Assembly (NCBI GenBank): GCA_964525605.1
Contig: CAZGKT010000001.1
Coordinates: 133,153-197,152 of the forward strand
Reading direction: 5' to 3'
Length of the DNA: 64,000 nucleotides
Source of the DNA: an uncultured bacterium
GTDB lineage: Bacteria > Oederibacteriota > Muellerivitia > Muellerivitales > Muellerivitaceae
Numbering within the stretch: the stretch's first letter is position 1; the number at the start of each line of letters is the position of its first letter. Shown piece by piece: positions 5,921 through 39,262 of this stretch. The position numbers were made by a program, and so were the translations under genes. The notes under the pieces are model-generated. The model had not been told where the DNA came from and made no database searches. It was given only the letters and a program-made list of their open reading frames with translations.

Positions 5921-6014
5921 ATTTTTACCTTAAAAGGAATGGCCCTGGACAATGCGGGGCAAAAGGAAACTATCCGACTTGACTGATTCTTTTTCAAGCG
6001 CTTTGATAAAAGGA

Positions 6015-11727: not shown

Positions 11728-12780
11728 CTATAAACGAGTAATGAGCGAAATGTAATTAATTGACCCGATGGAATTACTTACAAATGCGTAATCAACTTCA
11801 AACAGATAAGCCCATATACCCACCCCCACGGAAGGAGTGAAGTCATCATCATCGAATTGCATTCCTTTTGTTTCAAAACCGCCTCGAATAGCTACGAATT
11901 GTTTATACCAATATTCCAAACCGAGATGATAATTATTGAGAGATTGGCCAGCATAAAGGGTATCCGCATCAAAATTAATCTCAAGGGTACTTACCGGGAC
12001 GGGAGCACCGTTAGTGGTCACCCGTTTACCCAGTTCCTGAGTATAAGAAAGCCCCAGCGTCAAGCTAGGTTGGAGTGTTTGGGTTGGATTGGTGGGGGTA
12101 TTAGACCAAGTCACATATGATCCCCCAGTAATGTCCCGTCCAACTAAACCTATTGCAAATTCCTTGGCTGGTTTAAATATTAAACCAAGATCCGACCCAA
12201 TTCCAAAAGCCGAGGCCCCGGCCGCATCGGTTTTTAAAACCTTAATGGTTCCCCCAATCACTAGCTGATCCGCTACTTTCCATCCGCCTGAAAAAAAACC
12301 AGCCTGATCCGAATAAGAAGTCGTACCAATCACATTGGGACTTGATGCGTTGGTTATTGAAATCCCATCCACACCCAATCGCAGATAACTTATAGCGTAA
12401 GAGCCTGCATCTTTAGTATTGAAAGCAATATTTACAAAGTCGTAACTCTGGAGATCGTTTTCAGCCGCATGCATTGTTGTAATTTCAATATCGTCAATTA
12501 AAGCTAAGCCCGCTGGGTTCCAATATGCCGCCGAAGCATCATTTGCCGCCGCAACAAAAGCCCCTCCCATGGCCAATGGTCTTGCCCCTGCACCTTTGGT
12601 TAAAACTTCGGCGGTGTAATCTGTCGATTGGGCCCGAAGAGTAGCAACCCCTAATCCTAAAAAAATGGCTGACGTAAAAACAGAGATATAAAGTTTTGGA
12701 CCCACTGAACTTCTCCTCTCATGGACCAACAAATTTAGGGGCTTCACAAAAAGTTTATCAACCACCCCTTGAAAATTCAA
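11728..12780 (-). CDS. outer-membrane beta-barrel protein, FadL/TodX/PorV family (paralog 2)
   Basis: 350 aa with a signal peptide. Same N-terminal motif as the 2031..3044 protein ('GARPLAMGGAFVAAANDASAAYWNPAGLA'). Clearly paralogous. Confidence 0.6.
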   Translation of the reverse strand: MNFQGVVDKLFVKPLNLLVHERRSSVGPKLYISVFTSAIFLGLGVATLRAQSTDYTAEVLTKGAGARPLAMGGAFVAAANDASAAYWNPAGLALIDDIEITTMHAAENDLQSYDFVNIAFNTKDAGSYAISYLRLGVDGISITNASSPNVIGTTSYSDQAGFFSGGWKVADQLVIGGTIKVLKTDAAGASAFGIGSDLGLIFKPAKEFAIGLVGRDITGGSYVTWSNTPTNPTQTLQPSLTLGLSYTQELGKRVTTNGAPVPVSTLEINFDADTLYAGQSLNNYHLGLEYWYKQFVAIRGGFETKGMQFDDDDFTPSVGVGIWAYLFEVDYAFVSNSIGSINYISLITRL

Positions 12781-15489: not shown

Positions 15490-15503
15490 TAAAGATAGAA
15501 TGA

Positions 15504-15541
15504 AAAAGGAGGAACGGTTATTACCGTCCCTCCTTTTTTTA
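15504..15541. terminator. bidirectional terminator hairpin between convergent genes
   Basis: 'aaaaaggaggaacggttattaccgtccctcctttttttaa': ~10-bp stem (1 mismatch), 6-nt loop, T7 tract on + and A5 on the other side. Confidence 0.5.
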
Positions 15542-15558: not shown

Positions 15559-16287
15559 TTACAGTTTTCCCAACCACACCATCCACCGAAGCTTCCAGAC
15601 CGTGCAAGCAAACAAGGTTAATTCTTTAAGAGAAAGTTTGCTTTCGCCTTGATGTCGGTTTACAAAAACAATCGGAAATTCTATGACTTTCGCATTTAAA
15701 CGAACGGCCCTGAAAAGAATTTCCACCTGAAACGAATAGCCGGGAGAAAATATTTTATTCAAATCGATTTTCTTCAATAGTTCTGCTCGGTAACATTTGT
15801 AACCGCCGGAGCAGTCTTCCGGTTGAAGGCCTAACAGGTATTTCGTCACCGAGTTGGCAAAACGGCTAATAAAAAAACGCCCCATTCCCCAATTCACCAT
15901 TCCCCCATCCCGTACATATCGGGAACCGATCACCAAGTCATATTCCAAGGCCAATTCCAACATTTTGGGGATATTCACCGGATCATGGGAAAGATCGGCA
16001 TCCATCGCGATCACCCGCCGATATCCCTTTTTTAACCCGAATTGCATCCCCTCCACATAAGCGGTTCCAAGACCACTTTTGGCGGAACGGTGAAGCACCT
16101 TTACCCGCCGATCTTTTTTTGCGATAAGGTCCGCAATTTTCCCTGTCCCATCGGGAGAATTATCGTCAACCACCAGTAGGTCGCAAGCCTTTGTGGCTAA
16201 GAATATTTTTTTGTAGACCGTCTCAATATTTCCCTTTTCGTTGTAAGTGGGGACAACAATTAAGGTTTGGTTTCTGGTTGAAGGCAT
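15559..16287 (-). CDS. GT2-family polyprenyl-phosphate sugar synthase (dolichyl-phosphate mannose synthase Dpm1/Ppm1-like)
   Basis: 242 aa: 'VVPTYNEKGNIETV', 'VVDDNSPDGTGKIA', 'RVIAMDADLSHDP' (DxD / D-A-D catalytic motifs of GT-A Dpm1-like enzymes). Confidence 0.8.
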   Translation of the reverse strand: MPSTRNQTLIVVPTYNEKGNIETVYKKIFLATKACDLLVVDDNSPDGTGKIADLIAKKDRRVKVLHRSAKSGLGTAYVEGMQFGLKKGYRRVIAMDADLSHDPVNIPKMLELALEYDLVIGSRYVRDGGMVNWGMGRFFISRFANSVTKYLLGLQPEDCSGGYKCYRAELLKKIDLNKIFSPGYSFQVEILFRAVRLNAKVIEFPIVFVNRHQGESKLSLKELTLFACTVWKLRWMVWLGKL

Positions 16288-16449: not shown

Positions 16450-17481
16450 CTATTTCCCTGGTTTCATAATTGGAACAAACCGAGCTACACGATTAATTCC
16501 CTTTTCAACCACCAAAACTCTACCAGCTGTATCCACGGCGATTCCTGCCGTTTCACCCATCGTATCCTTTCGTTGATAAATGGCTAAAAGTTTCCCATCC
16601 GTAGTAAATCTTAAGACCGCACCACGACTGGCGTTGCTCGCATAAATATTACCCTGGTAAAAAGCTAGATAGGGCATCTCCTCGTTTTTACCTTTCCAGG
16701 TTAAAACTTTAAAGGACCCTAAAAATCTTCCATTTAGATCAAACTTTTGTATCCTGCGATTGTCCGAATCAGCAACATAAAGAAAACCGCCGGGGTCAGC
16801 TGTTATTCCAACTGGTTCCTGAAATTGTCCGTTAGCTGAGCCAAAGCCGCCCCACTCCATTAAAAAATTACCATTTAAATCAAAAACTTGTATTTTGTGG
16901 TTACCCGTATCGCAAACGAAGATTCGATTGCCCACCTCCACCAGATCTCGAGGACCAAAAAAACCATGGTTGAATTTAGAAAGAAATTTTCCCTTTCCAT
17001 CAAACTTTTGCACCCTGTGGTTGAAAGTATCGCAGACCAACAGGTTTCCCTGTCCATCCACGATTAAACCGCTGGGTTGAACAAATTGCCCATCCCCTTT
17101 GCCTTGAGTTCCAAAAGCAAATTCTTCCTGGCCGTTGGAATCAAACTTACGGATATTATGTGCGCTGAAATCGCTGACATAAAATCCTCCATCGGGAGAA
17201 GCCGCCACCACCTGGGCTTCCTTAAATTTCTCGGATTTGGGCCCAGAACCATCCACTTCCATATCCGTGTAGATTTGGACAATTTTTGAGAGTGTCAGGG
17301 CCTGGGTCAATCGATCCACCCCCACATACGTCAAGACAGCCAAAAGGGCCAAACCAAAAACAACTGATAAAACCACCATCCCTTTGCCAATTTTTCTTTT
17401 TTTCGCATTTCCCGTCTGCAACTTCGACTTCTTTGAGCGGAGGGTGGATTTATTGGGCATGCTTTTCTCCTTAGGATTCAA
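16450..17481 (-). CDS. N-terminally membrane-anchored NHL-repeat beta-propeller protein
   Basis: 343 aa. Basic N-terminal tail plus TM (MVVLSVVFGLALLAVLTYVG). Six repeats of the 'G.F..P.G.a.d..G.iyVaD..N.RIQ.Fd..G.F' type (e.g. 'NHRVQKFDGKGKF', 'NHKIQVFDLNGNF', 'NRRIQKFDLNGRF'). Confidence 0.75.
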   Translation of the reverse strand: MNPKEKSMPNKSTLRSKKSKLQTGNAKKRKIGKGMVVLSVVFGLALLAVLTYVGVDRLTQALTLSKIVQIYTDMEVDGSGPKSEKFKEAQVVAASPDGGFYVSDFSAHNIRKFDSNGQEEFAFGTQGKGDGQFVQPSGLIVDGQGNLLVCDTFNHRVQKFDGKGKFLSKFNHGFFGPRDLVEVGNRIFVCDTGNHKIQVFDLNGNFLMEWGGFGSANGQFQEPVGITADPGGFLYVADSDNRRIQKFDLNGRFLGSFKVLTWKGKNEEMPYLAFYQGNIYASNASRGAVLRFTTDGKLLAIYQRKDTMGETAGIAVDTAGRVLVVEKGINRVARFVPIMKPGK

Positions 17482-17493
17482 TCAAACTTGATC

Positions 17494-18546
17494 TTATTGG
17501 CCCTTGATCTTGAAAAGGCTTCCAGCCCCTGCGTCAACAACAAGCAAGTTCCCATCCTTATCGACCGCCAGACCCATCGGAACGCGGAACAGATCGTTAC
17601 CAGCCGAATCCTTTTGAATCGAAGTCACCAAGGTTCCGTCGAGATGGTAGCAAAGAACCTGTTTGCCCCTGCCATCCGAAACGTACAGAAGCTGTTTCGT
17701 TTTATCCAATGCCAAGTGGGGTTCCATATCCACCTGATCCTTGACCCATCCCTTAACCGGCCATTGTTTTAGAAATTGTCCATCGGGGGAGAAAACCTGT
17801 ATCCTGAAATTTAATCGGTCGGCGACGTATAAATTTCCCGCTTGATCCAAAGCCAATCCGATGGGTTCATTGAATTCCCCGGGTTTTGTTCCCGGAATCG
17901 GGGCGCCTGACTTGGGGTCTACCGCACACCAGGTCCGTATTTTTTGGCCCTTGGGGTCGAATTTAACGACACGGTGTTTCCCAGTATCCGCGACATAGAT
18001 AAAACCATTTCCGTCGACCGCAACTTCTCGAGGTCCCCAAAATCCATCTCCAATAGCAAATGCCAACTTAGGATTGCCATTTTTATTGAATATTTGAATA
18101 CGGGCGTTCCAAGTGTCGGCGACATAAATAGTATCGTCAGAACCAATGGCAATACCATTCGGCTCGTTCAACTTTCCAGGAAGGGCTGAAGAAAGTTTCT
18201 TTGCGTCCCCACCGCCCACGTTGCCAAATCCCCCAAACTCACCTTGAAATTGCCAATTCTTGGCGGAGAACCGTTGAATTCGATGGTTCTTGCTGTCAGC
18301 CACAAAGATATCGCCCTTACTGTTGACGGCAATTCCGCGAGGATATGAAAACTGGCCCGGTCCGGATCCAGGAGTGCCCCCCATCAGTAAAACCAGGTTA
18401 GCTGCTGCAGGCGATGGTGCCCGGGAGATGATGGGTTTAGGTTTGGAAAGAACCATTGCCCATACCGCCGCCAAGGCCACTAAAATCAGAAGCCCAGCCA
18501 TGATGAGTTCCTTCAGTGTTACAATGCGTTCCCCGATCTTGATCAT
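17494..18546 (-). CDS. N-terminally membrane-anchored NHL-repeat beta-propeller protein (paralog)
   Basis: 350 aa. TM anchor (LIMAGLLILVALAAVWAMV). NHL repeats ('NHRIQRFSAKNWQF', 'NARIQIFNKNGNP', 'KHRVVKFDPKGQK', 'NFRIQVFSPDGQF'). 12-bp spacing to the downstream NHL gene. Confidence 0.75.
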   Translation of the reverse strand: MIKIGERIVTLKELIMAGLLILVALAAVWAMVLSKPKPIISRAPSPAAANLVLLMGGTPGSGPGQFSYPRGIAVNSKGDIFVADSKNHRIQRFSAKNWQFQGEFGGFGNVGGGDAKKLSSALPGKLNEPNGIAIGSDDTIYVADTWNARIQIFNKNGNPKLAFAIGDGFWGPREVAVDGNGFIYVADTGKHRVVKFDPKGQKIRTWCAVDPKSGAPIPGTKPGEFNEPIGLALDQAGNLYVADRLNFRIQVFSPDGQFLKQWPVKGWVKDQVDMEPHLALDKTKQLLYVSDGRGKQVLCYHLDGTLVTSIQKDSAGNDLFRVPMGLAVDKDGNLLVVDAGAGSLFKIKGQ

Positions 18547-18574: not shown

Positions 18575-21118
18575 TTATGGATTTAGTTTGTACAACATGG
18601 AATTCCCAACTGCGTATACCAAACTTCCCAATTGGGCGAATTTGGAAAAAGCACCCGTATTCGCCGAGTATTTCTGCCGTTCCGCATCTCCTACATATAT
18701 GTAATCTATATTGTATTTCGTTAATAAGTCCTTTGTTTTTGCGAGATCCATAGAGGTATAGATGGTTTCTACATCCCCCTGGCGACGTTGAATTGTATCA
18801 TCAGAATTCTGTCCCCGGATAACTGCCTGGTCCCAAGATCCACGCCACTGAGCTTCATGAAAATCCCATCCAAGGACCGTTGGAAATCCTGTCAGAGTGG
18901 CCACGGTATCTGTATCTTGATGATATGACAACCCCGGGCATTCCAAAATGATTGGCACCTTTACTCCTGATAAATTTCCCTGTTTTACAGTCGGTTTCAC
19001 ATTTATTTTAATCCATTGCGCCACTTGAAAATCCGCCGGGAAAGTTCGTTCGTAATAAACAGCTCCATCCATGGTAACGTTATCGACTGAAGAACCGTTC
19101 ATACGTGCTGTGAAGGCCAAAACGGGATAAAGGGCCGCCCCCAACAGCGCTAATCCGATCGTAAAACCCCAAACACTTTTTCCCAAGACAGTCCATTGCG
19201 GCCAAGCGTTTTCCATAATCCACTTGAGCCAAAAACCGGAAGCGAGGCTGAGTAAAATCCACGCCTGGTAATGAAACTTGAAAACCGTATTCATCCGATA
19301 AAGAGATCCTCCGGAAAAATGGTCTTTAATAAACACAATCTCACAGCCAATAATCAATAGAAAAGCAAGAAGTGCCAGAAGAGCAGAAAAAATGGTTTCC
19401 CTTGTTTCGGTCTTTTGAATGATCGATAGAACCGCCAACCCCGCCAACAGAAGCGTGGCGAACAGGGTTCCAAGTTTGAGGGCTTCTAAATCCAATAAGC
19501 CAAGCACTAATCCGATGGTTAATAAAGTAACAATCGGTATAAAACGACCCTTTGATCCGTTTAGATACGATATCAATTTATCGAAAATTCCCTGGAGTTG
19601 TACCTTTGGAAGAACCATGACCTCGGAGTCAGAAGCCAGACTCATTTCTCCACCACAAGTTCCACAGTATTTTTTACCAGGATTCTCTCTTCCGCAAAAG
19701 GAGCAGACAGGCTCCTCAGTCTTTTTCGTTTTGGCTTTACCGTTCTTTTCCAGATTCCCCTTCATGATGGATTTGATGATCAAGGCGGGAGTCAAAATCA
19801 AAAAGAACAAGCCAAATAGGATAAACAAATAATAAAGATGGGTTCGGTCCCCCACTATCCCCAGCCCTTTCGCTTGCGACTGAAACTTCAGATAAAAAGG
19901 TAGGTAGATGATGAAACTTCCAGCAACGATCGGAACACCCACTGTAGCTGTTTGAATTAACCAATCCATGAAAGTATCTTCTTTGGCAAGAGCCCAACCC
20001 TGTTGAAGAAAAAGACAGCTTCCTAATAAAAGCATGAAGGTTGGAAAATCCCAACTATTCATGAAGGATAGTCCGCCAAATAAAACCATGAGTAAAAACC
20101 AATAAATCCATCGAACAACGGGCCGTGCACCCAACACCTGCATGCCCCCGAAAGGCGTTCGTAGGAGCGAATAAGCCGCCGCGATCGCCAAAAGGACAAA
20201 CGGAATGGCCATCACATGGGGATGAAGGTCTGAAAGGAAAAAGCTAAATGAAGGAAACTCATTGATCATTTTATCCGTGGGAGGAACGGGAATGATCCGT
20301 GAGGCTTGAAAATAATCCCAACCATGGGCAAGAGGTGAAAAAAGAAAATCGAGGGCTGCCCCCAATCCTTTTGGGGCGCTGGGATTGGCTGGAAAATTGT
20401 AATAAGGGATTCGCAGGTCCCCTATTTGAAAACTCTGGATAACCCGATACCAATAATCCAAGTTTCCGAACAAGGCGAGAGCCGCCACAGAAAATAGAGA
20501 ATATCGATATCGGCGGGTTAACCCATAGGCCAGGGAAAAAGTACAAACCGCGGCCAAAGACCAAGTCAACGCAATCGCTAGGTTATAGGCCACGCCCGAA
20601 CCCACTCCGCTTAAAAGGGAAAGAGCGGAAACGATCATGTAGCCGAAGTAATAATAGGAAATACTGCCTCCAGAAAGCCAAGGATCCTGAGGAGGCATAG
20701 ACGGGGAAGCCAAAATGCCGTTGATCATGGCGAAATCCATGGGTTTTTCGGTCCCGACAATGTCTGGAGTGCGCATTTTGTAAGCACCGGCTATTAAAAA
20801 CGCCATGAGAAACAAAGATTCCACAACTAATATAAAACCCAGGTTTCTGCCCAGATATTCTTTGATGGAAACCCATTGATCCCAAAGAATCCATGAGGAG
20901 AGGAGAATCATCGTCAAGACCGCAAGCCAAACAGTCCCCCTTCCAAAGGAAACATAACCAAAGATCCAGGAAAAATAACCAACCATTAAAAGCGCAACCA
21001 CCTTACTAAAGGCATAGCCTTTTTCGGGAAGATGTCGCAAAAGGATCAAAGTAATTGGCAAAGCCAATATCCCCAAGATTTCAATCATGAACCACCAACC
21101 CAAAAGCGCCGCCATCAT
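18575..21118 (-). CDS. DUF2298 / 'YYY-domain' (TIGR03662-like) large polytopic membrane protein with internal zinc ribbon
   Basis: 847 aa. Signature 'GTEKPMDFAMINGILASPSMPPQDPWLSGGSISYYYFGY' (the YYY motif after the first TM block). Many TM helices. A cytoplasmic-loop zinc ribbon 'EPVCSFCGRENPGKKYCGTCGG' (aa ~470-490, nt ~19654-19710). C-terminal soluble domain ('PTVLGWDFHEAQWRG..IYTSMDLAKTKDLLTKYNIDYIYVG') homologous to the C-terminus of the 2053-aa protein. Confidence 0.65.
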   Translation of the reverse strand: MMAALLGWWFMIEILGILALPITLILLRHLPEKGYAFSKVVALLMVGYFSWIFGYVSFGRGTVWLAVLTMILLSSWILWDQWVSIKEYLGRNLGFILVVESLFLMAFLIAGAYKMRTPDIVGTEKPMDFAMINGILASPSMPPQDPWLSGGSISYYYFGYMIVSALSLLSGVGSGVAYNLAIALTWSLAAVCTFSLAYGLTRRYRYSLFSVAALALFGNLDYWYRVIQSFQIGDLRIPYYNFPANPSAPKGLGAALDFLFSPLAHGWDYFQASRIIPVPPTDKMINEFPSFSFFLSDLHPHVMAIPFVLLAIAAAYSLLRTPFGGMQVLGARPVVRWIYWFLLMVLFGGLSFMNSWDFPTFMLLLGSCLFLQQGWALAKEDTFMDWLIQTATVGVPIVAGSFIIYLPFYLKFQSQAKGLGIVGDRTHLYYLFILFGLFFLILTPALIIKSIMKGNLEKNGKAKTKKTEEPVCSFCGRENPGKKYCGTCGGEMSLASDSEVMVLPKVQLQGIFDKLISYLNGSKGRFIPIVTLLTIGLVLGLLDLEALKLGTLFATLLLAGLAVLSIIQKTETRETIFSALLALLAFLLIIGCEIVFIKDHFSGGSLYRMNTVFKFHYQAWILLSLASGFWLKWIMENAWPQWTVLGKSVWGFTIGLALLGAALYPVLAFTARMNGSSVDNVTMDGAVYYERTFPADFQVAQWIKINVKPTVKQGNLSGVKVPIILECPGLSYHQDTDTVATLTGFPTVLGWDFHEAQWRGSWDQAVIRGQNSDDTIQRRQGDVETIYTSMDLAKTKDLLTKYNIDYIYVGDAERQKYSANTGAFSKFAQLGSLVYAVGNSMLYKLNP

Positions 21119-21151: not shown

Positions 21152-24100
21152 TTAATTTCGAACAGGAGGAGGATTGTAATAAATTTCAACTTCCGGATTT
21201 TTATAAATCAATGGCAAAAAATTGGCAAATTTCGCCAATCCCAAGGTGGGGTAACCGGCTTTGCCCCCGGCTCCATTTCGTTCAATAGTCCCCACCATTA
21301 CGAGTCGAACCCCATAAGCGTCCAACATCCGCTTGGCCAATCCCAGATCCGTTGTTTCGTATATTTGGTCCACTGCCGCTTTACGGTTGTAGATATCGGT
21401 GTCCAACTGTTTTCCCACCCATTCATGTACATGTGAATCCCACCCCATAAGCGCCGGAATACCTGTGAAAATTGAAAAGCGCGAGCCCCAAGAATTATAA
21501 CCTGCACCCACAAATTCCATGAGGCAGGGCTGGTTGGGGACATGGTCGTTCAAAAAGCGAATCGCGGCGTCGTCTCCCGGGTTGGAGCGGTGCATATACT
21601 CGAGCCCGTTTAGCGTAGGGCTTTCCACATAACCAACCCATTTCAGACGAGTTGATTCAAAAAAACCATGACACTTCCTTATTGAAGCCGCCAGGGGATA
21701 AATCGATACCGCTATAGCTAGAATCAAAACCAATGTACTCCAGCATCGGAAGGCGAGTTTCGCACCCATATTCTTTTGACCTTCCCATAGGAAGGCAATT
21801 AGGGTTACTGAAAGAGCCGCAAGAGAACCCGGTAAAAGAAATTCAACATTCAGGATGTTGCTCCAATGTTGAATCAGGTTTAGAAGAGAGCCAAAACTTC
21901 CTTGAGGAAGCAAGGAAACTATTGATACAAAAATCGACATCCCTCCCAGTCCCAAACTTAAAACCCAATCAGCTGTCTTTTTCAAAGTGCTCGTTGTCAA
22001 TCTCCATATCAAAAGGCCCGCCACAACAACGATGTTAATGATATAGGTAATGGGTGTTTGGAGCGAATCGGCAAAGTTGAAAAAGATAAGTTCCAAAATT
22101 AAGAATAGAAGCACCCCGGCCACCGCAACCAGCACGCGTTTGGATACGAGAGTCTCTTTTTTAGCCGTTTTAAGCCATCCCAAAATGAAATCAATCATCT
22201 TGGGAATCAAAGCTCCCACGGCGATGGAGGCCAACATCCAGGCGTGAATTCCAAATTTAAACAAGGAGTTGTTCCGCATCCAGTCGCCGCCCAAAAACTC
22301 ACTGACGGCGAACAATTCCAAAACTGCTAAGACCAGAAATAAAAGCGCGGTTAGAATATAGGTAAAAGAAAGAGGCCGGTCCTTGATAACCTTCACGGCA
22401 AGTCCAAGATAAAAGAATCCCAAGAGCCACAAAACCGAGCAAAGACCCAACCCAAGGGTTAAAGCCATATCCTGATAAAGGTGAATTCCCTGGAGGGAGA
22501 GAACAACTATCCACAGCAATACCACCGCTGCTTCCGCCAGCCATATTTCCCAGCGAGTTTTTAACTGAACCGCAAGCACAAGCAAAATCGCGGCTACGCT
22601 GGCCAATAGCTGTGAGAAAAAGACCTTCCCCTGGGGTTCAGACCAATGAACCCAGGAAGCTCCCCAAACCACCATCAGAGAAAAGAACCCCAGTGACAAA
22701 ATTCCCCGAACGGGGTCTTTAGGGGAAAGCAATCCCGATAGAAAATCAAAGGCTTTGTCGGGCAAATTTTTCAAGAATCGTTTTTCCGGCTTGGCTTTAC
22801 CCACCCAGAGCAAAATCTCTTTGGAATAGGCCAGAACAAAACTCATTAAAAGTATTGAAAGAAAAAAACCATAAATACCAATGAAGTCGTTAAGATCCGT
22901 GCGAATGGACGGCAGAACCCAGAGAATCTTGTTTTGCTGAGGAGTAAATCGAAGAAAGTTCGGAATCCAGAACAAGCCCGCGGTCACCAATATTCCTGCC
23001 ACACCTACTGCAATAAACAGCAAGTGTTTCGAAAGAAGCCGCGTAGTTTTTTGTAAATATAGCCAGAGGACAGACGCTAAAAACCCAAGACCAAGAAATA
23101 GAATCAAGTAGAACGTGGACCCACCCAGAGCCTGTTGATCCACCCCAGGCATGATCAAGGTCCACCAACCCAGCAAGGTAAACGCAAGAACCAGAATGCT
23201 GAAAACCATGCCAGACCCTTTCACAATGGTTTTTCCATTGAGAACTACAAGTCCGCGAACCAAAAGAGTGATCCCGATGATCGCGAGCCCCGTGAGAATA
23301 TCCCAAGTATTCAGAAACACGAGCCCGCCCATCAAAAATCCAGCAACCAGAAACTTGAACCAATCCCCTTTCCAACTAAATAGCTTAGGCGCAGGGGATA
23401 AATAAATGGAAGCCACCACTCCCCATAAAAGCATGTCGAAAGGCATGGCTAGCGTATGTGAATGCATGTCGCCATAAAGCACGCTGAAATAGGGAAACTC
23501 GTTGATACTGTTCGGAATCACTCGAGAGGGGCCAAAAAAATCATAGGTAATTCCGTTAAGCGCGGACAAGTTATGGGCGACTATGCATTGGTTAATCGCG
23601 GCCAAATATTGTTTAACTCCGGTGAGGTTGCTCGCCATTGCACATAAAAAACCTGCCACCCAACCTCCCGAAAGCCGTCCCGATAAGACGTAGGCTAGAC
23701 CGAAAGCGGATGAAAAAATCAGGGCAAATAGAGTTATCAAGCTCAAGTTATAGGTCACGGCAGGTACCAGCCCCAGAGTTTTGGAGAGTATCCCCATCAT
23801 TAGATGGCCAAAATAATACGGGTAACCAATAGGTTGGCCCGCCATCCACATATTTTGTGGAGGGAATGTCTCGCCCCGCACGATGGAGGCCAAAAATCCA
23901 AAATCCATACCCGCTTCTCCACCCCCATTGTATCCTTCGCCCGAGGGATCATGCACATGAGAGGAATAAAGACGGACGAATGTGAACGCGATAAAGGCAA
24001 AAACGAACACGCCTTCTTGAATTAACCAGACACGACCCAAACGCTTATAAAAATCTTTGATAACTTTTCGGTCGCGCCAATACCCATAAACCGAAAGACC

Positions 24101-27100
24101 CGTAAGAAGCAAAAACCAAACCCAACAGGCCCCCGCTGTAAAATGCGTGATTTTCAAGCTTGTCATAAACCACACAACCCAGGTGAAAACAAGGAAACCC
24201 AGAACCTTACTGAGCGAATAGGCCCCCGCAGAAATAGGGGAAAGGATGCGAAGCGTCAGCGGTAATACGAGCCATCCGAGGACAACCAAAAGCGCCAGCC
24301 AGGTGAACCAGGCGCGGCATTGATAACCCGTCTTCTCTTCCGGTCGGGGAGGCAAATTCATGATGTCATTTTCCACAACTGGGTGGTCCGCCAGGTCTTG
24401 CAAAACCTTGAGGGTTTGAGTGTCCGGCAAGCCGGGCACGGTCGCAGGGGCCTGAACTGGGGGGGCGTTAACATCGGTCACGGAGGAAGAGGCAGCGGAT
24501 GCCGGAGGAAGTTTCCCCCCTATGGGGGGCACAATAGCAGGCAAGGTTTTTTCAGCTTGTAGTTTGTCGGGCGGCGGAGGAGATTGAGTTGCAGGCGCGG
24601 AAAGGTTGTTAAGCTTTTGAAGCAGCCCGGCCTGTTCCAGAGCCTGGTTATGTTTGCTGATGAAATCATCCACGTTTTCAGGCGTGATTGCCCTCATCTG
24701 GTCACGAGTAATGCCCCGCACGTAATCATCCGAGTTGAGAATTTCCAAGATGCGTTCTGGAGTCACTTGCTCGACTTTTTTGAAAATATAAACCCGAGGA
24801 TGGTCATACACGGAAAAGGATTCCTCAGCCATATCATCCGGATGGGCCCACCCTAGCAAGCTGGGAAAATTGTGAAATTCATGTAACATTTTGTAACCTA
24901 AAAGCCCAGCCCAGAGGGCCCGGTAATACCGGGAGGTCACTGGATAAGCATTAAACCCGTGAGGCCTGAACTCAGGAGTTTCATCCGTTAGGGTGTACCA
25001 GAGTTTCTTTGAAGAAATGGCGATATAGTCAGCCTGAGGAATCATATTGGCGTAATAATTTTTCTTTACCGGGCTGTCGTCCGTTGGAAAACCGTGCAGT
25101 TCGTAGGGAGTCAAATCCTGGAGTTGGTAAAGTCCCGGATTCATCGGCCGATCTAACCGTGAGTCCTGTTGGGGGTTCAAATCCACCGGCAACCCATCTC
25201 CCCAGGCCTCGTTATAAATCTTTGAGCCAAGGGGTATGTTTTTATAAATCCAGCCTGATGAATCAAGCCAGGGATGCGCATACCGATAGACATGCATATA
25301 GGCCATTGAATAAAAAAGGCTTCCACCAACGGTTAATGCCAATAGCGCGGGTTTGATAAACCTTTCCAGGTTTTTAGGGAGCCGATCAAACACATTCCAC
25401 AAAAAAATCGCCGCAAAAATGCAAAAAACAGGGGCCAGGGGAACCATATAGCGTATGAATTTCGTGTTCCATCCGCCAATAAAGGCGAAATAGGGGATGA
25501 ACCAAGAAAGAAGAATGAGTTCTGGCAGGATAAATCTAAACCCTTTGTTTTTCAGAAAAGGCGCTGGGAGGATCGCTCCGGAAGAAACCGGTTGAAAAAG
25601 CTGAAGAACGAATCTTCCTAAAACCCAAACCATCCCTAGTACCGCCGTGATCCCGAGGGGCCACCACAACTCCACACTGATCAGGTTCTGAAGATGAAAA
25701 ATGTATCGGGGCGTGTCTTTAAATTGCAGCACATAGCAGGCGCCCGCATCAGATACCACCGACCACTCATAATTCATTGAGTTCATAAACCCCTGGTAAT
25801 CCAAGAGGGACCATGGTGAAAGCAAACAAAAGATCAGAAATGAAAGAGCACCGGCCGAAGAAAGTCTTAACCACAGGGGTACCTGGGCCCGCAATACCCT
25901 GAATTTCGAGACTCCCCACACAAACAGGACTGCGGCCATACCTGCAAGAGAGAGAAAAAGAACAATCCAAATGCCAATGGAACCGTTGGGGTTCAAAGGG
26001 CAGAGATCACGTATGACACCCTTTAATTTATAACCTGCTCCAACCAAAGCGCCTGTACCCCCAGCGAGAAACAGTGCCGCGAGAATATTGTTCAGGCTTT
26101 GATCGTCCCTGTTTTTATGATCAAGCTTCAGCCAATCCTTTTCAGTGGTTTTCGATAAATACACCAGATGGCCGATCAAAATCATGAACAGGTAATAAAG
26201 GGAGCTTGTTTTTGCCGCCATGGAAAGACCAAAAGCCGCACCAACTAAAAGGTAATTTTTCCAAGACCCCTGCCGAGAAACTTCATACGCACCAAGTGCG
26301 ATGACCACCAACATGAGGGTGATAAAAGATTCCGTGATGCAGTAATGGCAAACCTGGATACTCACAACGGAGAAAGCGAAAAACGCAGACCCCAAAAGGG
26401 CTAGTGGTTTATTTTCATAAACCTTGTTCAGGAACCAATAAATAACCAGAATGGTCAGGGTGGAAAAAAAGGCGGCCCAAATACGCCCAATAATCATGCA
26501 ATCGCTGTAACCAGTGTATTGAAGGCCATAATGCGAGAAAGAGGCGAAAATGGCCCAAATCCCCAGGGCCATTTGAAGAAGTCGGCCCCACCGGGATTCC
26601 CAGCTAAACCAAGTAAATGCCGCTCCGACGACCAACGCAAAGGCCATGGAACCAAAGGTTCTCGCGAAAGCATCTGGAAGGAAAAATGGTATGACACCCA
26701 ATAAAAAGGTCAATCCAGCTGCGATATAAATTGGGAGTCCTAACCATTCCAATCCGATGAAATCGGACAAAAGGGCCGAAACCCCGAAAAACAAAATCGC
26801 GTCCAAGCAAAAATTCGCTCCTTTTAATGGCCAATCATTCAGAAAATCAAACCAGGCCGAAAACACTGGCACGAATTTGATAAACAAAACAAGCAAAAAC
26901 ACCCCGGAGGCGATTAAGAAAGAAGGAATTTTGAATTTTTTCCGTGGGAAAAGCCAACCGATTCCCGCAAATAGAGAGATAAGAAAAGCCCAATAAAAGA
27001 AAGCAGCTAGGAAAGCCTGGTTGGGGAAAAACGAATTGAAAAAAGACGGGGTAGAAATTAGTTCACCGGTGGCTCGATAAAGGTAAACAGGCAGTTGGCC

Positions 27101-27313
27101 GTAAGCAAAGAACTTAACCTTAAAACCATCCGAGGCTTGAATACTTGCGGTTTGACCAAGAATGTTTCTTTCATCAGGATGAAAGGACTTGCCAAAATCC
27201 CAGTTAGGATTGTAAAACCGGAAACCCGCTCCTAAGAGAGTAATAAAAACAAGTATGATAAATGTTGGATTATTCCAACGTCTCAAGACCGATAAATTGC
27301 TTTTTCGGGCCAC
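21152..27313 (-). CDS. giant (2053 aa) polytopic membrane protein: N-terminal GT-C (TIGR03663/PMT-like) module, Pro-rich linker, C-terminal DUF2298 'YYY'-like module
   Basis: N-terminal part has an early-loop 'FHPDERN' acidic motif like the 12988 protein, with >12 TM helices and a soluble domain. Pro-rich segment aa ~905-990 ('ATQSPPPPDKLQAEKTLPAIVPPIGGKLPPASAASSSVTDVNAPPVQAPATVPGLP', nt ~24346-24601). C-terminal half repeats the DUF2298 signature 'GGEAGMDFGFLASIVRGETFPPQNMWMAGQPIGYPYYFGH' (aligns to the YYY motif of the 847-aa protein). C-terminus 'PALMGWDSHVHEWVG..IYETTDLGLAKRMLDAYGVRLVMVG' aligns with the 847-aa protein C-terminus. No internal stops over 6.2 kb. Confidence 0.65.
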   Translation of the reverse strand: MARKSNLSVLRRWNNPTFIILVFITLLGAGFRFYNPNWDFGKSFHPDERNILGQTASIQASDGFKVKFFAYGQLPVYLYRATGELISTPSFFNSFFPNQAFLAAFFYWAFLISLFAGIGWLFPRKKFKIPSFLIASGVFLLVLFIKFVPVFSAWFDFLNDWPLKGANFCLDAILFFGVSALLSDFIGLEWLGLPIYIAAGLTFLLGVIPFFLPDAFARTFGSMAFALVVGAAFTWFSWESRWGRLLQMALGIWAIFASFSHYGLQYTGYSDCMIIGRIWAAFFSTLTILVIYWFLNKVYENKPLALLGSAFFAFSVVSIQVCHYCITESFITLMLVVIALGAYEVSRQGSWKNYLLVGAAFGLSMAAKTSSLYYLFMILIGHLVYLSKTTEKDWLKLDHKNRDDQSLNNILAALFLAGGTGALVGAGYKLKGVIRDLCPLNPNGSIGIWIVLFLSLAGMAAVLFVWGVSKFRVLRAQVPLWLRLSSAGALSFLIFCLLSPWSLLDYQGFMNSMNYEWSVVSDAGACYVLQFKDTPRYIFHLQNLISVELWWPLGITAVLGMVWVLGRFVLQLFQPVSSGAILPAPFLKNKGFRFILPELILLSWFIPYFAFIGGWNTKFIRYMVPLAPVFCIFAAIFLWNVFDRLPKNLERFIKPALLALTVGGSLFYSMAYMHVYRYAHPWLDSSGWIYKNIPLGSKIYNEAWGDGLPVDLNPQQDSRLDRPMNPGLYQLQDLTPYELHGFPTDDSPVKKNYYANMIPQADYIAISSKKLWYTLTDETPEFRPHGFNAYPVTSRYYRALWAGLLGYKMLHEFHNFPSLLGWAHPDDMAEESFSVYDHPRVYIFKKVEQVTPERILEILNSDDYVRGITRDQMRAITPENVDDFISKHNQALEQAGLLQKLNNLSAPATQSPPPPDKLQAEKTLPAIVPPIGGKLPPASAASSSVTDVNAPPVQAPATVPGLPDTQTLKVLQDLADHPVVENDIMNLPPRPEEKTGYQCRAWFTWLALLVVLGWLVLPLTLRILSPISAGAYSLSKVLGFLVFTWVVWFMTSLKITHFTAGACWVWFLLLTGLSVYGYWRDRKVIKDFYKRLGRVWLIQEGVFVFAFIAFTFVRLYSSHVHDPSGEGYNGGGEAGMDFGFLASIVRGETFPPQNMWMAGQPIGYPYYFGHLMMGILSKTLGLVPAVTYNLSLITLFALIFSSAFGLAYVLSGRLSGGWVAGFLCAMASNLTGVKQYLAAINQCIVAHNLSALNGITYDFFGPSRVIPNSINEFPYFSVLYGDMHSHTLAMPFDMLLWGVVASIYLSPAPKLFSWKGDWFKFLVAGFLMGGLVFLNTWDILTGLAIIGITLLVRGLVVLNGKTIVKGSGMVFSILVLAFTLLGWWTLIMPGVDQQALGGSTFYLILFLGLGFLASVLWLYLQKTTRLLSKHLLFIAVGVAGILVTAGLFWIPNFLRFTPQQNKILWVLPSIRTDLNDFIGIYGFFLSILLMSFVLAYSKEILLWVGKAKPEKRFLKNLPDKAFDFLSGLLSPKDPVRGILSLGFFSLMVVWGASWVHWSEPQGKVFFSQLLASVAAILLVLAVQLKTRWEIWLAEAAVVLLWIVVLSLQGIHLYQDMALTLGLGLCSVLWLLGFFYLGLAVKVIKDRPLSFTYILTALLFLVLAVLELFAVSEFLGGDWMRNNSLFKFGIHAWMLASIAVGALIPKMIDFILGWLKTAKKETLVSKRVLVAVAGVLLFLILELIFFNFADSLQTPITYIINIVVVAGLLIWRLTTSTLKKTADWVLSLGLGGMSIFVSIVSLLPQGSFGSLLNLIQHWSNILNVEFLLPGSLAALSVTLIAFLWEGQKNMGAKLAFRCWSTLVLILAIAVSIYPLAASIRKCHGFFESTRLKWVGYVESPTLNGLEYMHRSNPGDDAAIRFLNDHVPNQPCLMEFVGAGYNSWGSRFSIFTGIPALMGWDSHVHEWVGKQLDTDIYNRKAAVDQIYETTDLGLAKRMLDAYGVRLVMVGTIERNGAGGKAGYPTLGLAKFANFLPLIYKNPEVEIYYNPPPVRN

Positions 27314-27413: not shown

Positions 27414-27800
27414 TTACCGACAAAAAACCTGGGATCCCCCGACTTGAAGGTTATTACAAAACACCTTAAAAGAATATATTCCCGGGGCTGGAAAGACCAC
27501 CCGCCAACTGGTTATCAGGTCATGAAAGCTCATGTCGGAAAACAAAATCTTGCGTGGAGCCGAATCGGATACTTTGACCCCTTTTTCGTCAAAAAGACTA
27601 ATATCAATTTGAAATTCCCCTCCCGAAGGATGGTTCAGCCTGGTAAAAGTCATAAATTCAACCCCAAATGGATAACCCGGCGGCCCAAACCCTTGAAAAA
27701 CACCTCTTAAGTCGTAATTTTTATTCAAAACATCCTGAAAAATAGAATGACAACAGAGAAAGCTTGAAACCTTTGGCAGATTAAAATCAGTTGAGTTCAC
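27414..27800 (-). CDS. hypothetical small protein (128 aa), possibly translationally coupled to the upstream GT2
   Basis: Start overlaps the GT2 stop in an ATGA arrangement (27797-27800). No recognisable motif. The competing + strand ORF 27255..27710 overlaps the giant gene start and looks less plausible. Confidence 0.35.
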   Translation of the reverse strand: MNSTDFNLPKVSSFLCCHSIFQDVLNKNYDLRGVFQGFGPPGYPFGVEFMTFTRLNHPSGGEFQIDISLFDEKGVKVSDSAPRKILFSDMSFHDLITSWRVVFPAPGIYSFKVFCNNLQVGGSQVFCR

Positions 27801-28585
27801 TGGGGCCGCTTCCCTTTTTCTTTGAAGTACCTCAAAGCTTTTTGATTCATTTCACTTGGCACCTCGAATTTTTCTTTAGCCCCTAATAGCATCCGCCCAA
27901 AACACCAGAGACTCAAGGTTAAAACAATGAACCCATCCAAAACCGTGGTTCCGGCTCGGTAATAGGCAATTTTAACTAAAAATTGATTGTCAATACGGAA
28001 TTTGGCCCTGGCCGTGATAAGAGCGATTTCCTGGGCGCAGGAATATTTTATTCCCGTGTAAAAGGAAAGAATAGTCGGTAGGGTTCGAACCTGTAAGAGG
28101 CGAAGCCCCGATTCGACATCCTGATACCTGTGGCCAGAAAGCACTGAGTTTGTGAATGTTAAAAACCTATTTCCCCATATTTTATATCTTGGGTAGACGG
28201 AAAAATCCCTTTTCGTCAAAACCACATCCACTTTTTTCTTCAGCATGTACCGAACTAATTCGGGAATATATTCGGGTTTGTGTTGTCCATCCGCGTCGAG
28301 GGTGACCACGATGTCTGTATTACTCACGATTCCCTGATCGCGCAAGTATAAGACAAACAAAAACCCCTGTTTTAAGGCGCCGGCCATTCCTGAGTTAAGC
28401 TTTAAATCGACTAGAAACAAACTTTGATCTTTTCTAGAGAAAGCACAAAGAATTTCTCGGCTTCCATCGCTCGAGCCGTCATTCACGCAAACCAAATAAT
28501 CCACCCTCGGCCTTAAAAGGTGAAGAACGGAAAGAAGGTGTTTTTCTTCATTGAAAATTGGTAGTACCGCCACGACTTTTGGCAC
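27797..28585 (-). CDS. GT2-family glycosyltransferase (polyprenyl-phosphate sugar synthase, Dpm1-like)
   Basis: 262 aa: 'AVLPIFNEEKHL', 'VCVNDGSSDGSREIL', 'VVTLDADGQHKPEYIPEL' (DxD / D-x-D catalytic signatures). Basic C-terminal tail with a probable TM segment. Confidence 0.8.
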   Translation of the reverse strand: MPKVVAVLPIFNEEKHLLSVLHLLRPRVDYLVCVNDGSSDGSREILCAFSRKDQSLFLVDLKLNSGMAGALKQGFLFVLYLRDQGIVSNTDIVVTLDADGQHKPEYIPELVRYMLKKKVDVVLTKRDFSVYPRYKIWGNRFLTFTNSVLSGHRYQDVESGLRLLQVRTLPTILSFYTGIKYSCAQEIALITARAKFRIDNQFLVKIAYYRAGTTVLDGFIVLTLSLWCFGRMLLGAKEKFEVPSEMNQKALRYFKEKGKRPQ

Positions 28586-31752: not shown

Positions 31753-33711
31753 GTGGTATTTAAAAGAAACCAGCCCCTCTCCGCAATCACTTTACCCGGT
31801 ACCGTAAACTTAAATTCGTCGCTTCCAGTTAGTCCCCGTCCGGCCAGTTTGTATATAACCCTCGGAGTTAGCCTAGCGGCCTTTTTGATACCATTTATTG
31901 TTTATTTGGTAACCCTCAATCCTGCGCTTTTTAGGAACGACTCACCAGAGGTTGTGGTTGGTTGTGTGGGGCTGGGAATCATCCATGCGCCCGGGTATCC
32001 CCTCTTCATTCTCATCGGAAGGTTGTTCTCGTTATTTCCCATCGGCAACCCGGCCATGACGCTTAACCTCTTTGCGGCCTTCCTGGGCGGCTTCGCCACT
32101 CTTCTGTTCTTTCTTAACGCACGCCTTTTTTTGAACCGTCCCTCATTTTTTGACCTCACCTCCCCATCCCCGACTCATATGGAACTAATCTGCCTATTCT
32201 CCGCTTTAAATTTCGGCCTCTCCCAAACCTTCTGGAGCAACTCACTGGTTTCCAAGGGAGGCATCTATGTTTTGCAAATCGTCCTGGAACTTTCGCTCGT
32301 TCTTACCACCCAAATTTTTCTCGCAAAGGAGAAAAAACCCAAACCCAGTATTTTTTTATTGTTTCTATTTATTTTCGCGTTGGGGTTCTGCAACCACTGG
32401 CCCACCCAAGCGTTTTTGGGGTTTCTCGTGGCGTCGGCAGCATTATTTTCCCGGGCAAATAAACAAAAACTTGATCTCTCCCCAAAGCAAATCATTTTAG
32501 GATTTTCCCAATCGATTTTCGCCCTCAGCCTTTACCTTTATTTACCCATTCGTGCATTTGCAAAACCCATCATCGATTTTGGTGCACCCACGAATCTTTT
32601 TCGCTTTTTGGAAACAATTACGCGAATGAACTATCTAAAGGTGGAAACCCTAGCGACTGCCCCTGTCGGATCCTATCTGTCATTGTTTTATAAAATGGAA
32701 TATATCTCCAACCACACCTTGAGAGAATTCTGTCCGTTTTTCCTGTTTTTCGTTTTGGCGGGAAGTTATTTTCTGTTCAAACGGGACAAACCATTGTGTC
32801 TTTCTGCCGTAGGTTTGATGGCACTCGTGCTTGTTACCAATATTTTTTATCTTCAGGCCACTCCCATTGAATATTGGCATATCGCCGATCATTTACTAAC
32901 AAATAACTGGGTCATCGGATTTTTGGGGTGTATCGGTTTATTTTCTCTCTTTTCCAAAATTAACCGCTTTGGAAAACACCTTCTTTTATTTTGCTTACTC
33001 GCGATGGTTCCTTTGGTGTACCTCAACGGCATCCAGGCCAACAACCAAACCCGGCAATTTCTTTATGTCGGCTACGGTCTTACCGCTCTCAAATCATTGC
33101 CCCTTGACTCCATTTATTTCTCGGAGAATGATTACGATTACTTCTCAGCTCTCTATCTAACGGAAACCCTCCAGTTACGCCCTGACATCCATTTAATTCT
33201 CACGCCTTTTTTAGACAAGGTTTATCAGTTTGATAACGCGTTAGAACGCGTCAAACCTTTATTTGCAAAACAAAGTGATGTGTTCAGCAAAGAACAAGTC
33301 TACAGATGTGTCACGAACACCGATTTTGGCCATCCTCTTTATTGCACTTTTCCGGACGCCTACTTTTCAACCTCTTATTTAGCCTCGCATTCACGATTAG
33401 CCTTTGAGCCACATGACCTTTTGACCCATATCCTCAACCCAAGTGAAAAACCCATTCCAAAAAGTGATTTCTATTTCTTGCGTGACTTTCAGGAACACTA
33501 CCTCGACCCGGAAATATTTAATCCAAACGAGATCAACGGGCTGCTGAAAGAAATTTGCGCTTACCCACTGCTCAATGCAGCTAAATATGAAACAGTATTT
33601 GGAAATACCCAACACCGGGATTGGTATTTCGTCTCGGCCCTCGAACTAATCAGTGAACCAAATTTCTTCAATACTGTCATACGAGAATACAAAAATAAAA
33701 CAACCCGTTAA
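31753..33711 (+). CDS. DUF2723 / TMEM260-like GT-C polytopic membrane protein (putative protein O-mannosyltransferase family)
   Basis: 652 aa. First loop 'RNDSPEVVVGCVGLGIIHAPGYPLFILIGRLF' resembles the conserved 'HPPGYPL' segment of DUF2723 proteins. ~11 TM helices followed by a C-terminal soluble domain. Confidence 0.55.
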   Translation: MVFKRNQPLSAITLPGTVNLNSSLPVSPRPASLYITLGVSLAAFLIPFIVYLVTLNPALFRNDSPEVVVGCVGLGIIHAPGYPLFILIGRLFSLFPIGNPAMTLNLFAAFLGGFATLLFFLNARLFLNRPSFFDLTSPSPTHMELICLFSALNFGLSQTFWSNSLVSKGGIYVLQIVLELSLVLTTQIFLAKEKKPKPSIFLLFLFIFALGFCNHWPTQAFLGFLVASAALFSRANKQKLDLSPKQIILGFSQSIFALSLYLYLPIRAFAKPIIDFGAPTNLFRFLETITRMNYLKVETLATAPVGSYLSLFYKMEYISNHTLREFCPFFLFFVLAGSYFLFKRDKPLCLSAVGLMALVLVTNIFYLQATPIEYWHIADHLLTNNWVIGFLGCIGLFSLFSKINRFGKHLLLFCLLAMVPLVYLNGIQANNQTRQFLYVGYGLTALKSLPLDSIYFSENDYDYFSALYLTETLQLRPDIHLILTPFLDKVYQFDNALERVKPLFAKQSDVFSKEQVYRCVTNTDFGHPLYCTFPDAYFSTSYLASHSRLAFEPHDLLTHILNPSEKPIPKSDFYFLRDFQEHYLDPEIFNPNEINGLLKEICAYPLLNAAKYETVFGNTQHRDWYFVSALELISEPNFFNTVIREYKNKTTR

Positions 33712-33914: not shown

Positions 33915-34033
<119 letters not shown>

Positions 34034-34129
34034 ACATCGAGATCGTTAACTGTTATTAGCAGTTAAAAAGATTGATTGAAATACTATCCTTGAACCAAAG
34101 TGGATTAGGAATTGCGGTGAAGATGAAAC

Positions 34130-37163
<3,034 letters not shown>

Positions 37164-37370
37164 CATGCTTCTTCGCCACCGCATAAGAATTCACTAATGC
37201 ACTCGGTTCAGCTAATAATAGTATTTCAATCAATTGTCAAAGAACCGCCCCGCTTTTAAAAAGCGGTTCTGGCCATCAGCCAGAAGATACTTTCACTCAA
37301 GAAGTAAAAGCTCCGTGAATTTCTAGCAATAAAAATTCACGCAACCTTCACTCGAAGCCACCACCATTTA

Positions 37371-37446: not shown

Positions 37447-37475
37447 CCGGATCTAACCAGAAGCCCACGCATAGA

Positions 37476-37712: not shown

Positions 37713-39262
<1,550 letters not shown>

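Follow-up and report, generated by a model that had tools for sequence, protein, structure and literature searches.

The window analyzed here, a 64,000-nucleotide stretch of contig CAZGKT010000001.1 from an uncultured bacterium, encodes on its minus strand a giant membrane protein of 2053 amino acids (Table 1). The gene is a real, selected and conserved fusion in which a GT-C module (module 1, the N-terminal half) is joined to a module of DUF2298, a large membrane-protein family without an assigned function (module 2, the C-terminal half). The interpretation that we favor, with moderate confidence, is that the giant may be a single-chain pair of GT-C-type modules that carries out periplasmic glycosylation from polyprenyl-phosphate sugars. 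The giant adds no new principle. It is a lengthy representative of an architecture that is widespread, already catalogued and functionally uncharacterized. It does add the longest two-module form seen in an outer-membrane organism, together with a very well conserved syntenic locus.

The chance of finding 2053 stop-free codons at a GC (guanine plus cytosine) content of 46% was computed as about 1e-49, in line with an earlier note, made by a model from the letters of the window, which had argued that a single 6.2-kb open reading frame (ORF) could not arise by chance. The identical protein (P0202) is present in public collections, on three contigs of Logan assemblies, and a second 2053-residue protein from an NCBI contig falls into the same 90%-identity cluster. 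The AT skew of the plus strand is strongly positive over 20-28 kb, as would be expected from the T-rich coding strand of a very hydrophobic protein.

Orthologues were sought in one genome per species, which gave 22 related loci (designated by L numbers), most of them labelled candidate division FCPU426, and intactness was judged by stop-to-stop ORF analysis. An uninterrupted giant of 2047-2210 residues occupies the same syntenic position in 16 of the 22 loci, and a seventeenth (L017) reaches at least 1868 residues where its contig ends; the intact genes include MEGAHIT and SPAdes assemblies. In an alignment of the 18 fused ORFs, both halves are conserved at 40-85% identity per 50-residue block. 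The block of residues 901-950 drops to 21% identity and contains indels that always remain in frame, and conservation returns at residues 951-1000.

Two membrane modules and their linker

A hydropathy scan and structure models divide the giant into about 19 helices within the first 678 residues, a hydrophilic stretch of 363 residues (643-1005), about 22 further helices and a hydrophilic tail of 175 residues. By its profile matches, the N-terminal half belongs to a PMT_2/ArnT-like subfamily and not to TIGR03663. Its PMT_2 match was obtained when this half was scanned alone; its close homologues all carry PF13231 and are named ArnT-family or GT39 glycosyltransferases by their sources, and its model has a GT-C fold, with structural matches that include PDB entries 6p2r and 7bvf. 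The earlier note had described this half as a GT-C protein of the TIGR03663/PMT-like type that resembles, soluble domain included, the 833-residue protein encoded at 12988..15489. The TIGR03663 profile (cut-off 126 bits) gave no match to the N-terminal half even at E<=10, BLASTP against the 833-residue protein was not significant (best E 0.087), and hhalign paired the two over 104 columns of the PMT_2 core only (E 6e-4, probability 29%), with the soluble domain unaligned. The description therefore holds at the superfamily level only: the GT-C fold and the PMT_2 match stand, while the assignment to TIGR03663 and the resemblance to the 833-residue protein do not, and these two GT-C partners appear related, as far as is detectable, as members of one superfamily.

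The acidic motif FHPDERN, to which the same note had drawn attention, places D47-E48 after the first helix (residues 16-32), in what is predicted to be the first extracytoplasmic loop. Among 53 sequences of the module 1 family, H45, P46, D47, E48 and R49 are near-invariant, as are R277, H323, E328 and K368. D47-E48 is likely the catalytic acidic pair of module 1, which would transfer sugar from a polyprenyl-phosphate donor; the adjacent GT2 genes lend this indirect support. The insertion at residues 95-262 occurs only in FCPU426-type sequences, since every other family member in the N-module alignment (A2) has eight or fewer residues there, and stretches matched by phmmer show corresponding gaps. 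The soluble domain of module 1 is 62-83% identical among orthologues and is conserved also in stand-alone relatives of 550 residues and fused relatives of about 1500 residues.

The two halves had been described as joined by a Pro/Ala/Ser linker of about 85 residues. The region is indeed rich in these residues after position 905, but only residues 905-955 or so are variable, and residues 956-1005 form a conserved segment. From residue 992 onward, this segment is modelled with confidence as a helix continuous with the first transmembrane helix of DUF2298.

The C-terminal half is by sequence a genuine member of DUF2298/TIGR03662, as the earlier note proposed. It is truly paralogous to the adjacent 847-residue gene, but the paralogy is ancient. 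It scores 264.4 bits against PF10060 (cut-off 27.8; residues 1042-1694) and 344.3 bits against TIGR03662 (Chlor_Arch_YYY; cut-off 300.25). The YYYxG motif is present in degenerate form, as GYPYYFGH (residues 1163-1170) in the giant and SYYYFGY in the 847-residue paralogue. In the DUF2298 alignment (A1, whose numbering is converted to that of the giant by adding 991), the near-invariant residues of the signature are E142, P160, W165, Y173, Y175, Y176 and H179. The giant retains every near-invariant polar residue of the family (E1133, R1264, E1272, H1284, H1286, N1335, R1680, N1682, K1686, W1958 and H1961).

In the DUF2298 model, which is of high confidence, three helices precede a core that looks GT-C-like, and the C-terminal domain has the globular fold of the oligosaccharyltransferase central core and is AglB-like. 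Foldseek ranked DPY19 and AglB on top, with low TM-scores. The core of DUF2298 appears, on the basis of the model, to be a divergent GT-C-like fold, which the earlier reader had overlooked. None of the sequence and profile methods applied links DUF2298 to GT-C enzymes or oligosaccharyltransferases: the C-terminal half has no match to STT3-family models of Pfam or NCBIfam and no sequence match in the PDB, and the isolated soluble domains of both modules returned noise only from Pfam at E<=10. PF10060 may already be part of the Pfam GT-C clan.

A short motif, F-x-x-(F/I)-P-(S/A)-L-(L/M)-G-W, is common to both soluble domains (residues 816-827 and 1949-1961, at about 24833..24868 and 21431..21469). 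It may be a common acceptor-binding element or a product of chance; hhalign pairs the two domains over 19 columns (E 1.3e-3, probability 18%), which is too weak for homology. A profile match of 99.9% between the two family alignments was rejected as spurious, because it arose from frameshifted orthologue fragments in A1 that carried overhangs at the N-terminus.

Topology was derived from loop charges. The N-terminus of the giant is rich in Arg and Lys and the charges of the loops alternate consistently across about 19 helices, which suggests that the soluble domain of module 1 (residues 679-904) is periplasmic. An Arg/Lys-rich loop at residues 1077-1091, between helices 3 and 4 of DUF2298, would likewise place the linker in the periplasm, together with the conserved loop that follows helix 4 (GGEAGMDF...YPYYFGH). 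Thus, both signature loops and both soluble domains are predicted to be periplasmic, and the N-terminus of the DUF2298 module probably faces the periplasm. The three extra N-terminal helices would make DUF2298 a module that starts outside and can be joined to a PMT-like module that ends outside. Free-standing DUF2298 proteins begin directly with the first of these helices.

Fused relatives and comparable systems

This architecture is not peculiar to the locus: most of the DUF2298 relatives retrieved have it. The search for further genomes with the fused form, which the earlier note had recommended, was productive: besides the orthologues of the related loci, 57 of 103 DUF2298 homologues from other lineages have a homologue of module 1 upstream in the same chain (median 1551 residues), and the N-module comes first in all 57. 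The remaining 46 are free-standing (median 800 residues). Homology of the N-module extends from the first loop through the PMT_2 core and the late helices to the soluble domain, which indicates that the partner is one specific GT-C subfamily. The fused proteins are labelled "YYY domain-containing", "DUF2298 domain-containing" or "glycosyltransferase family 39" by their sources. The 168-residue insertion (about six helices), the longer linker and inserts in DUF2298 are specific to the FCPU426 form. An exhaustive search with the DUF2298 half returned 5354 representative clusters at E<=1e-3.

Other arrangements of the same modules exist. In a Patescibacteria-type locus (L030), an unfused 550-residue N-module homologue and a 742-residue DUF2298 protein are encoded in one gene cluster. 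Chloroflexota relatives of 2434-2744 residues end in TPR repeats; one of 2719 residues (P0216) carries PMT_2, two copies of DUF2298 and C-terminal TPR repeats in a single chain, and in another of 2744 residues (P0222) Pfam reports two DUF2298 stretches and TPR repeats only. In L031 (7001..13480), a 1487-residue fusion that belongs to the sister clade of the giant's DUF2298 half is followed by a PAP2-family phosphatase gene and a polysaccharide deacetylase gene. If DUF2298 used a diphosphate-linked donor, the PAP2 enzyme could recycle the carrier, in what is a single observation at this locus. In L001 (7509..12811), a free-standing paralogue of module 1 (P0005, 936 residues) has the six-helix insertion and no DUF2298, and lies directly downstream of an Agl23-like gene of 805 codons, which suggests that the PMT-like subfamily pairs also with Agl23-type genes. 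The 805-residue protein was considered as a hidden DUF2298 and rejected, as it is Agl23-like.

The closest known counterparts are PMT_2-DUF2298 fusions of about 1400-1860 residues, mainly from Chloroflexota, which have the same two modules in the same order with a homologous N-module; five such fusions are sister to the giant's DUF2298 half in a neighbor-joining tree without support values. The giant differs in being 500 residues longer, in its 168-residue insertion, its longer linker and a DUF2298 half of 1062 instead of about 800 residues, and in coming from a candidate phylum with an outer membrane. The TIGR03662/TIGR03663 pairs of archaea and Chloroflexota (Chlor_Arch_YYY and Agl23) likewise combine a DUF2298 protein with a PMT-like GT-C protein, and an actual pair of this kind (847 and 833 residues) is present in the window. 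The GT-C module of the giant, however, is of a different PMT_2 subfamily that fails the TIGR03663 model, and the Agl23 of these pairs has been tied to flippase activity and not to transfer (PMC11182771).

Yeast Pmt1-Pmt2 (6p2r) and mycobacterial EmbA-EmbB (7bvf), both of which match module 1, bring two different GT-C subunits together in one membrane complex. Their subunits are separate and closely related chains, whereas the modules of the giant are covalently linked, cannot be related by sequence or profile and are presumed to pair. AglB, STT3 and PglB combine a GT-C core with a C-terminal globular domain, as the DUF2298 module appears to do, where that domain is predicted to be periplasmic; the latter has no STT3 profile match, reads GWDSH in what may be the region corresponding to WWDYG and has three extra N-terminal helices. 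The TMTC-type O-mannosyltransferases (PMT_2 plus TPR) resemble the giant in having a PMT_2-type module and a large extra module, and its longest relatives also in ending with TPR repeats. The giant itself lacks TPR repeats; what it has as the extra module is another polytopic membrane domain.

Gene neighborhood and proposed function

The giant lies in a minus-strand array that consists, in order, of pyruvate:ferredoxin oxidoreductase genes, a GT2 gene, a DUF6941 gene, the giant, the free DUF2298 gene, two NHL propeller genes and a second GT2 gene. The gaps between these genes are short and the array is operon-like; the sole strong terminator, a 16-bp stem at 15503..15538, is one on which the Agl23-like gene converges. 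Counts from the promoter and terminator scan were not above shuffled expectation, and only this stem looks meaningful. Synteny of the locus is conserved in L003, L004, L006 and FCPU426 loci. Of the 18 loci whose giant is uninterrupted, 17 have a free DUF2298 gene (about 840 codons) directly downstream; the contig of L017 ends before that point. The earlier suggestion that the two families work together is supported by both the fusion and this gene neighborhood.

Table 1. Position of the giant gene, its parts and the neighboring genes in the window
Feature	Coordinates	Strand	Remarks
Giant ORF, 2053 residues, GTG start	21152..27313	minus	no internal stop; stop codon 21152-21154
Module 1 membrane domain, residues 1-678, GT-C fold, about 19 transmembrane helices, predicted cytoplasmic N-terminus	25280..27313	minus	
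FHPDERN, residues 44-50, predicted first periplasmic loop, PMT-type "DE" motif	27164..27184	minus	
Lineage-specific insertion, residues 95-262, 168 residues, about six extra transmembrane helices	26528..27031	minus	
PMT_2 (PF13231) match, residues 277-389	26147..26485	minus	27.7 bits; gathering score 26.1
Module 1 soluble domain, residues 679-904, predicted periplasmic, with highly conserved FPSLLGWAHPDD...VYDHP	24602..25279	minus	mixed alpha/beta model
Variable Pro/Ala/Ser/Thr-rich linker, residues 905-955	24449..24601	minus	21% identity, indels, in frame, 18 orthologues
Conserved pre-membrane segment, residues 956-1005 (TVPGLPDTQTLKVL...HPVVEND...), leads into first DUF2298 helix	24299..24448	minus	52% identity among orthologues
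DUF2298 membrane domain, residues 1006-1880, about 22 transmembrane helices	21674..24298	minus	
DUF2298 signature loop, residues 1131-1170 (GGEAGMDF...FPPQNMW...GYPYYFGH), conserved E1133 and degenerate "YYY"	23804..23923	minus	
DUF2298 C-terminal globular domain, residues 1881-2053, EFxG and FTGIPALMGWDSHVHEW motifs	21155..21673	minus	
Free-standing DUF2298 paralogue, 847 residues, 33 nt downstream of giant	18575..21118	minus	TIGR03662 498 bits; PF10060 363 bits
Two paralogous NHL beta-propeller proteins, each N-terminally membrane-anchored, between free DUF2298 and GT2	16450..18546	minus	
Second GT2, last gene of array	15559..16287	minus	
Agl23-like GT-C protein, 833 residues, N-terminal zinc ribbon	12988..15489	plus	TIGR03663 242 bits (cut-off 126); PMT_2 31 bits
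Secreted protein, 730 residues, signal peptide, Pro/Ser/Thr-rich low-complexity body, many LPPLPG-type repeats	9430..11622	minus	
DUF6941 protein, 128 residues, immediately upstream of giant; 4-nt overlap with GT2 gene	27414..27800	minus	syntenic in L003, L004, L006
GT2 glycosyltransferase, two genes upstream of giant	27797..28585	minus	PF00535
TMEM260-like GT-C gene (O-mannosyltransferase homologue)	31753..33711		
Another PMT_2 gene	45369..47648		

Both GT2 genes likely encode polyprenyl-phosphate-sugar synthases. Their products are closest to enzymes of this kind (AglJ, PgfS, Dol-P-hexose transferase, ArnC and PpgS), at scores below the family cut-offs; the best NCBIfam resemblances of the upstream enzyme are PpgS, ArnC, PgfS and Dol-P-hexose transferase, again all below cut-off. 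The position of the NHL pair, which may be either a partner subunit or a substrate, is kept in L003, L005 and L006 by their gene tables and in four loci with enough downstream sequence by tblastn. TIGR03663, the family of the Agl23-like protein, is now named "flippase activity-associated protein Agl23"; purified Agl23 of Haloarcula has been reported to translocate lipid-linked oligosaccharide, and the protein was proposed to be a Dol-P-hexose flippase (PMC11182771). The Agl23-like proteins of this lineage start with a cytoplasmic zinc ribbon (CGKCG...CEQCG) that lies outside the TIGR03663 model (12988..13150 of the plus strand in the window; L001, 7509..). The 730-residue protein, which might, speculatively, be a heavily glycosylated acceptor, matches nothing in Pfam or NCBIfam, is syntenic in L028 (62% identity) and in L009, L021 and L025 (39-43%), and is encoded beside a PorV2-like outer-membrane protein gene (11728..12780). 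The first part of the window (1..9304) contains LptF/G- and LptD-like genes, PorV-like genes and UvrA, which confirm that the bacterium has an outer membrane. A complete ribosomal RNA operon (16S, tRNA-Ile, tRNA-Ala, 23S, 5S; 33916..39263, minus strand) lies 6.6 kb from the giant.

In the proposed mechanism, a single chain in the inner membrane, with about 40 transmembrane helices, would hold two GT-C-type modules. The adjacent GT2 enzymes would load sugars onto polyprenyl phosphate at the cytoplasmic face, and the lipid-linked sugars would then be flipped, possibly with the aid of the Agl23-like neighbor. The two modules would work next to each other, like the Pmt1-Pmt2 or EmbA-EmbB heterodimers but covalently joined, to glycosylate a periplasmic or surface acceptor that is most likely protein. 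What the data show directly is the ORF and how it is conserved, the assignment to families and folds, the near-invariant residues and the synteny; we infer the donor, the acceptor, catalysis by DUF2298, the topology and the physical pairing of the modules. The recurrent fusion of DUF2298 to a PMT-like module, its core that looks GT-C-like, its C-terminal domain that looks AglB-like and the reported link of Agl23, its classic genomic partner, to flipping of lipid-linked glycans together make glycosylation in the periplasm or outside the cell, from polyprenyl-phosphate sugars, a testable hypothesis that could be addressed in tractable organisms such as haloarchaea or cultivated Chloroflexota.

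Several observations weigh against this mechanism. The structure models cover the modules singly. The PMT_2 score of the N-terminal half is barely above threshold, and comparison of the trimmed profiles of module 1 and DUF2298 (A2 against A1) revealed no homology. When the two halves and the DUF2298 profile were compared with PDB chains, the only matches were chance ones, to triosephosphate isomerase. The WWDYG motif is not present in the C-terminal domain of DUF2298, where the conserved motif is instead (L/M)GWDxHxxxW. In other phyla the fused genes occur in varied surroundings, often without GT2 genes. Some paralogues of module 1 are free-standing and have no DUF2298 gene as a neighbor, so the partnership with DUF2298 is not obligatory. 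A literature search (DUF2298, TIGR03662, TIGR03663, YYY domain) found no functional or biochemical study of DUF2298.

The acceptor leans toward protein because the long relatives have TPR tails, the C-terminal domain of DUF2298 is AglB-like and the locus encodes a secreted Pro/Ser/Thr-rich protein; the TMEM260-like O-mannosyltransferase homologue nearby counts as a further hint. The modules could instead add successive sugars to a lipid-linked glycan, a lipoglycan or an envelope polysaccharide, in the manner of ArnT, Emb/Aft and PimE, and such a non-protein acceptor, although on balance unlikely, is a serious contender. The locus adjoins Lpt genes in an outer-membrane organism, the sister-clade fusion of L031 has genes for a PAP2 phosphatase and a polysaccharide deacetylase as neighbors, and the five GT-C-type modules of the locus are reminiscent of an assembly line. 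The TPR tails, the AglB-like domain, the TMEM260-like gene and the mucin-like secreted protein speak for protein, none of them decisively.

It is also conceivable, if rather doubtful, that only the PMT-like module transfers sugar and that DUF2298 is a non-catalytic GT-C-like module that translocates or holds the lipid-linked sugar, or serves as a scaffold that binds the acceptor, and in this way hands substrate to module 1. There are precedents in Agl23, with its reported flippase activity, and in PIG-U/GAB1, lipid-binding GT-C-like subunits that are not transferases; the Agl23 family, GT-C-like itself, is the classic genomic partner of DUF2298, and DUF2298 has no canonical DxD or WWDYG motif. 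However, the dense set of near-invariant Glu, His, Arg, Asn and Lys residues in its predicted periplasmic loops, together with the conserved soluble domain, is more reminiscent of an active site than of a scaffold. A purely accessory role is also at odds with the 46 of 103 homologues in which DUF2298 stands alone and with the proteins that have two copies of it.

Conversely, DUF2298 could be an unrecognized but active GT-C family of the oligosaccharyltransferase type that forms, with its PMT-like partner in cis or in trans, a two-site machine for protein glycosylation. This reading is improbable on present evidence. If it were true, the FCPU426 locus would hold a whole pathway, with two synthases of lipid-linked sugars, a flippase helper of the Agl23 type, four to five GT-C modules, the propellers as partners and a mucin-like protein as acceptor, and an unrecognized enzyme family would span more than 5000 sequence clusters from Chloroflexota, candidate phyla and archaea.

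Origin and integrity of the fusion

The earlier note had proposed that the giant is a fusion of TIGR03663 and TIGR03662 proteins and that the locus arose by duplication of the local 833/847-residue pair. The relationship of the two DUF2298 copies that it described was reproduced: BLASTP of the C-terminal half against the 847-residue protein gave E 3e-31 for the N-terminal part (29% identity), where the proposed motif alignment lies, and E 8e-16 for the far C-terminus, which is colinear as claimed. The matched segments comprise the N-terminal part, an R-N-x-x-F-K loop and the C-terminal domain, so that the two proteins are colinear over their full length. The two copies are thus truly homologous, both GT-C partners have a D-E pair in the first loop, and the distance between the two gene sets is less than 15 kb.

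A local duplication is nevertheless very improbable. Identity between the copies is only 27-29%, and they group with different outgroups in the neighbor-joining tree, which has no support values. The giants of 13 FCPU426 loci form a clade sister to the five fusions of about 1500 residues, while 13 free-standing FCPU426 copies form a separate clade whose sister group consists of free-standing proteins of about 800 residues. The distance between the two copies of the window (0.77) exceeds that of either to its outgroups (0.66-0.72). The tree and the dissimilar GT-C partners, of which the N-terminal half matches neither TIGR03663 nor, at a significant level, the 833-residue protein, argue against duplication within the locus, and the occurrence of the same fused architecture in other phyla suggests that the fusion is older than this lineage. 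The 847-residue protein has an internal CxxC...CxxC insert at residues 472-487.

In five loci (L003, L023, L025, L026 and L029, of which L026 is on the same contig as L006) the giant is broken into ORFs in overlapping frames, and three of the breaks (L003, L025 and L026) sit within the linker or close to it. The Pro/Ala-rich linker of L003 contains a run of five C, with the stop only a few bases beyond it in the downstream direction, and the downstream frame is open for 54 codons upstream; the name of this contig (contig_N) is in the style of the MFD MAG assemblies. In L026, there is a net indel of +2 nt in the variable linker relative to L013. The upstream extension of the downstream frame in the split genes encodes linker-like sequence. 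This and the open frame far upstream indicate frameshifts in a fused gene and not an ancestral gene boundary, and the split genes may be either sequencing errors or recent fissions. That the long ORF is an assembly artefact, in which a single-base error joins two ordinary genes, is suggested by these splits but is scarcely credible given intact fusions in 17 other species, short-read assemblies included, the same 2053-residue protein from independent sources and split cases that look like frameshifts, one of them near a run of C.

The giant of the window is roughly equidistant from all 17 orthologues. Compared with the giants of L028 and L011, which are 76% and 70% identical to each other in their two halves, it shows 59-60% identity in the N-terminal half, 35-42% in the linker and 48-49% in the C-terminal half. 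The genes that flank it are 71-96% identical to those of the same two loci (pyruvate oxidoreductase 86-96%, free DUF2298 71-80%), and against L028 the NHL proteins are 84-88% and the Agl23-like protein 84% identical. Divergence of the giant inside conserved flanks suggests allele replacement or accelerated evolution of that one gene.

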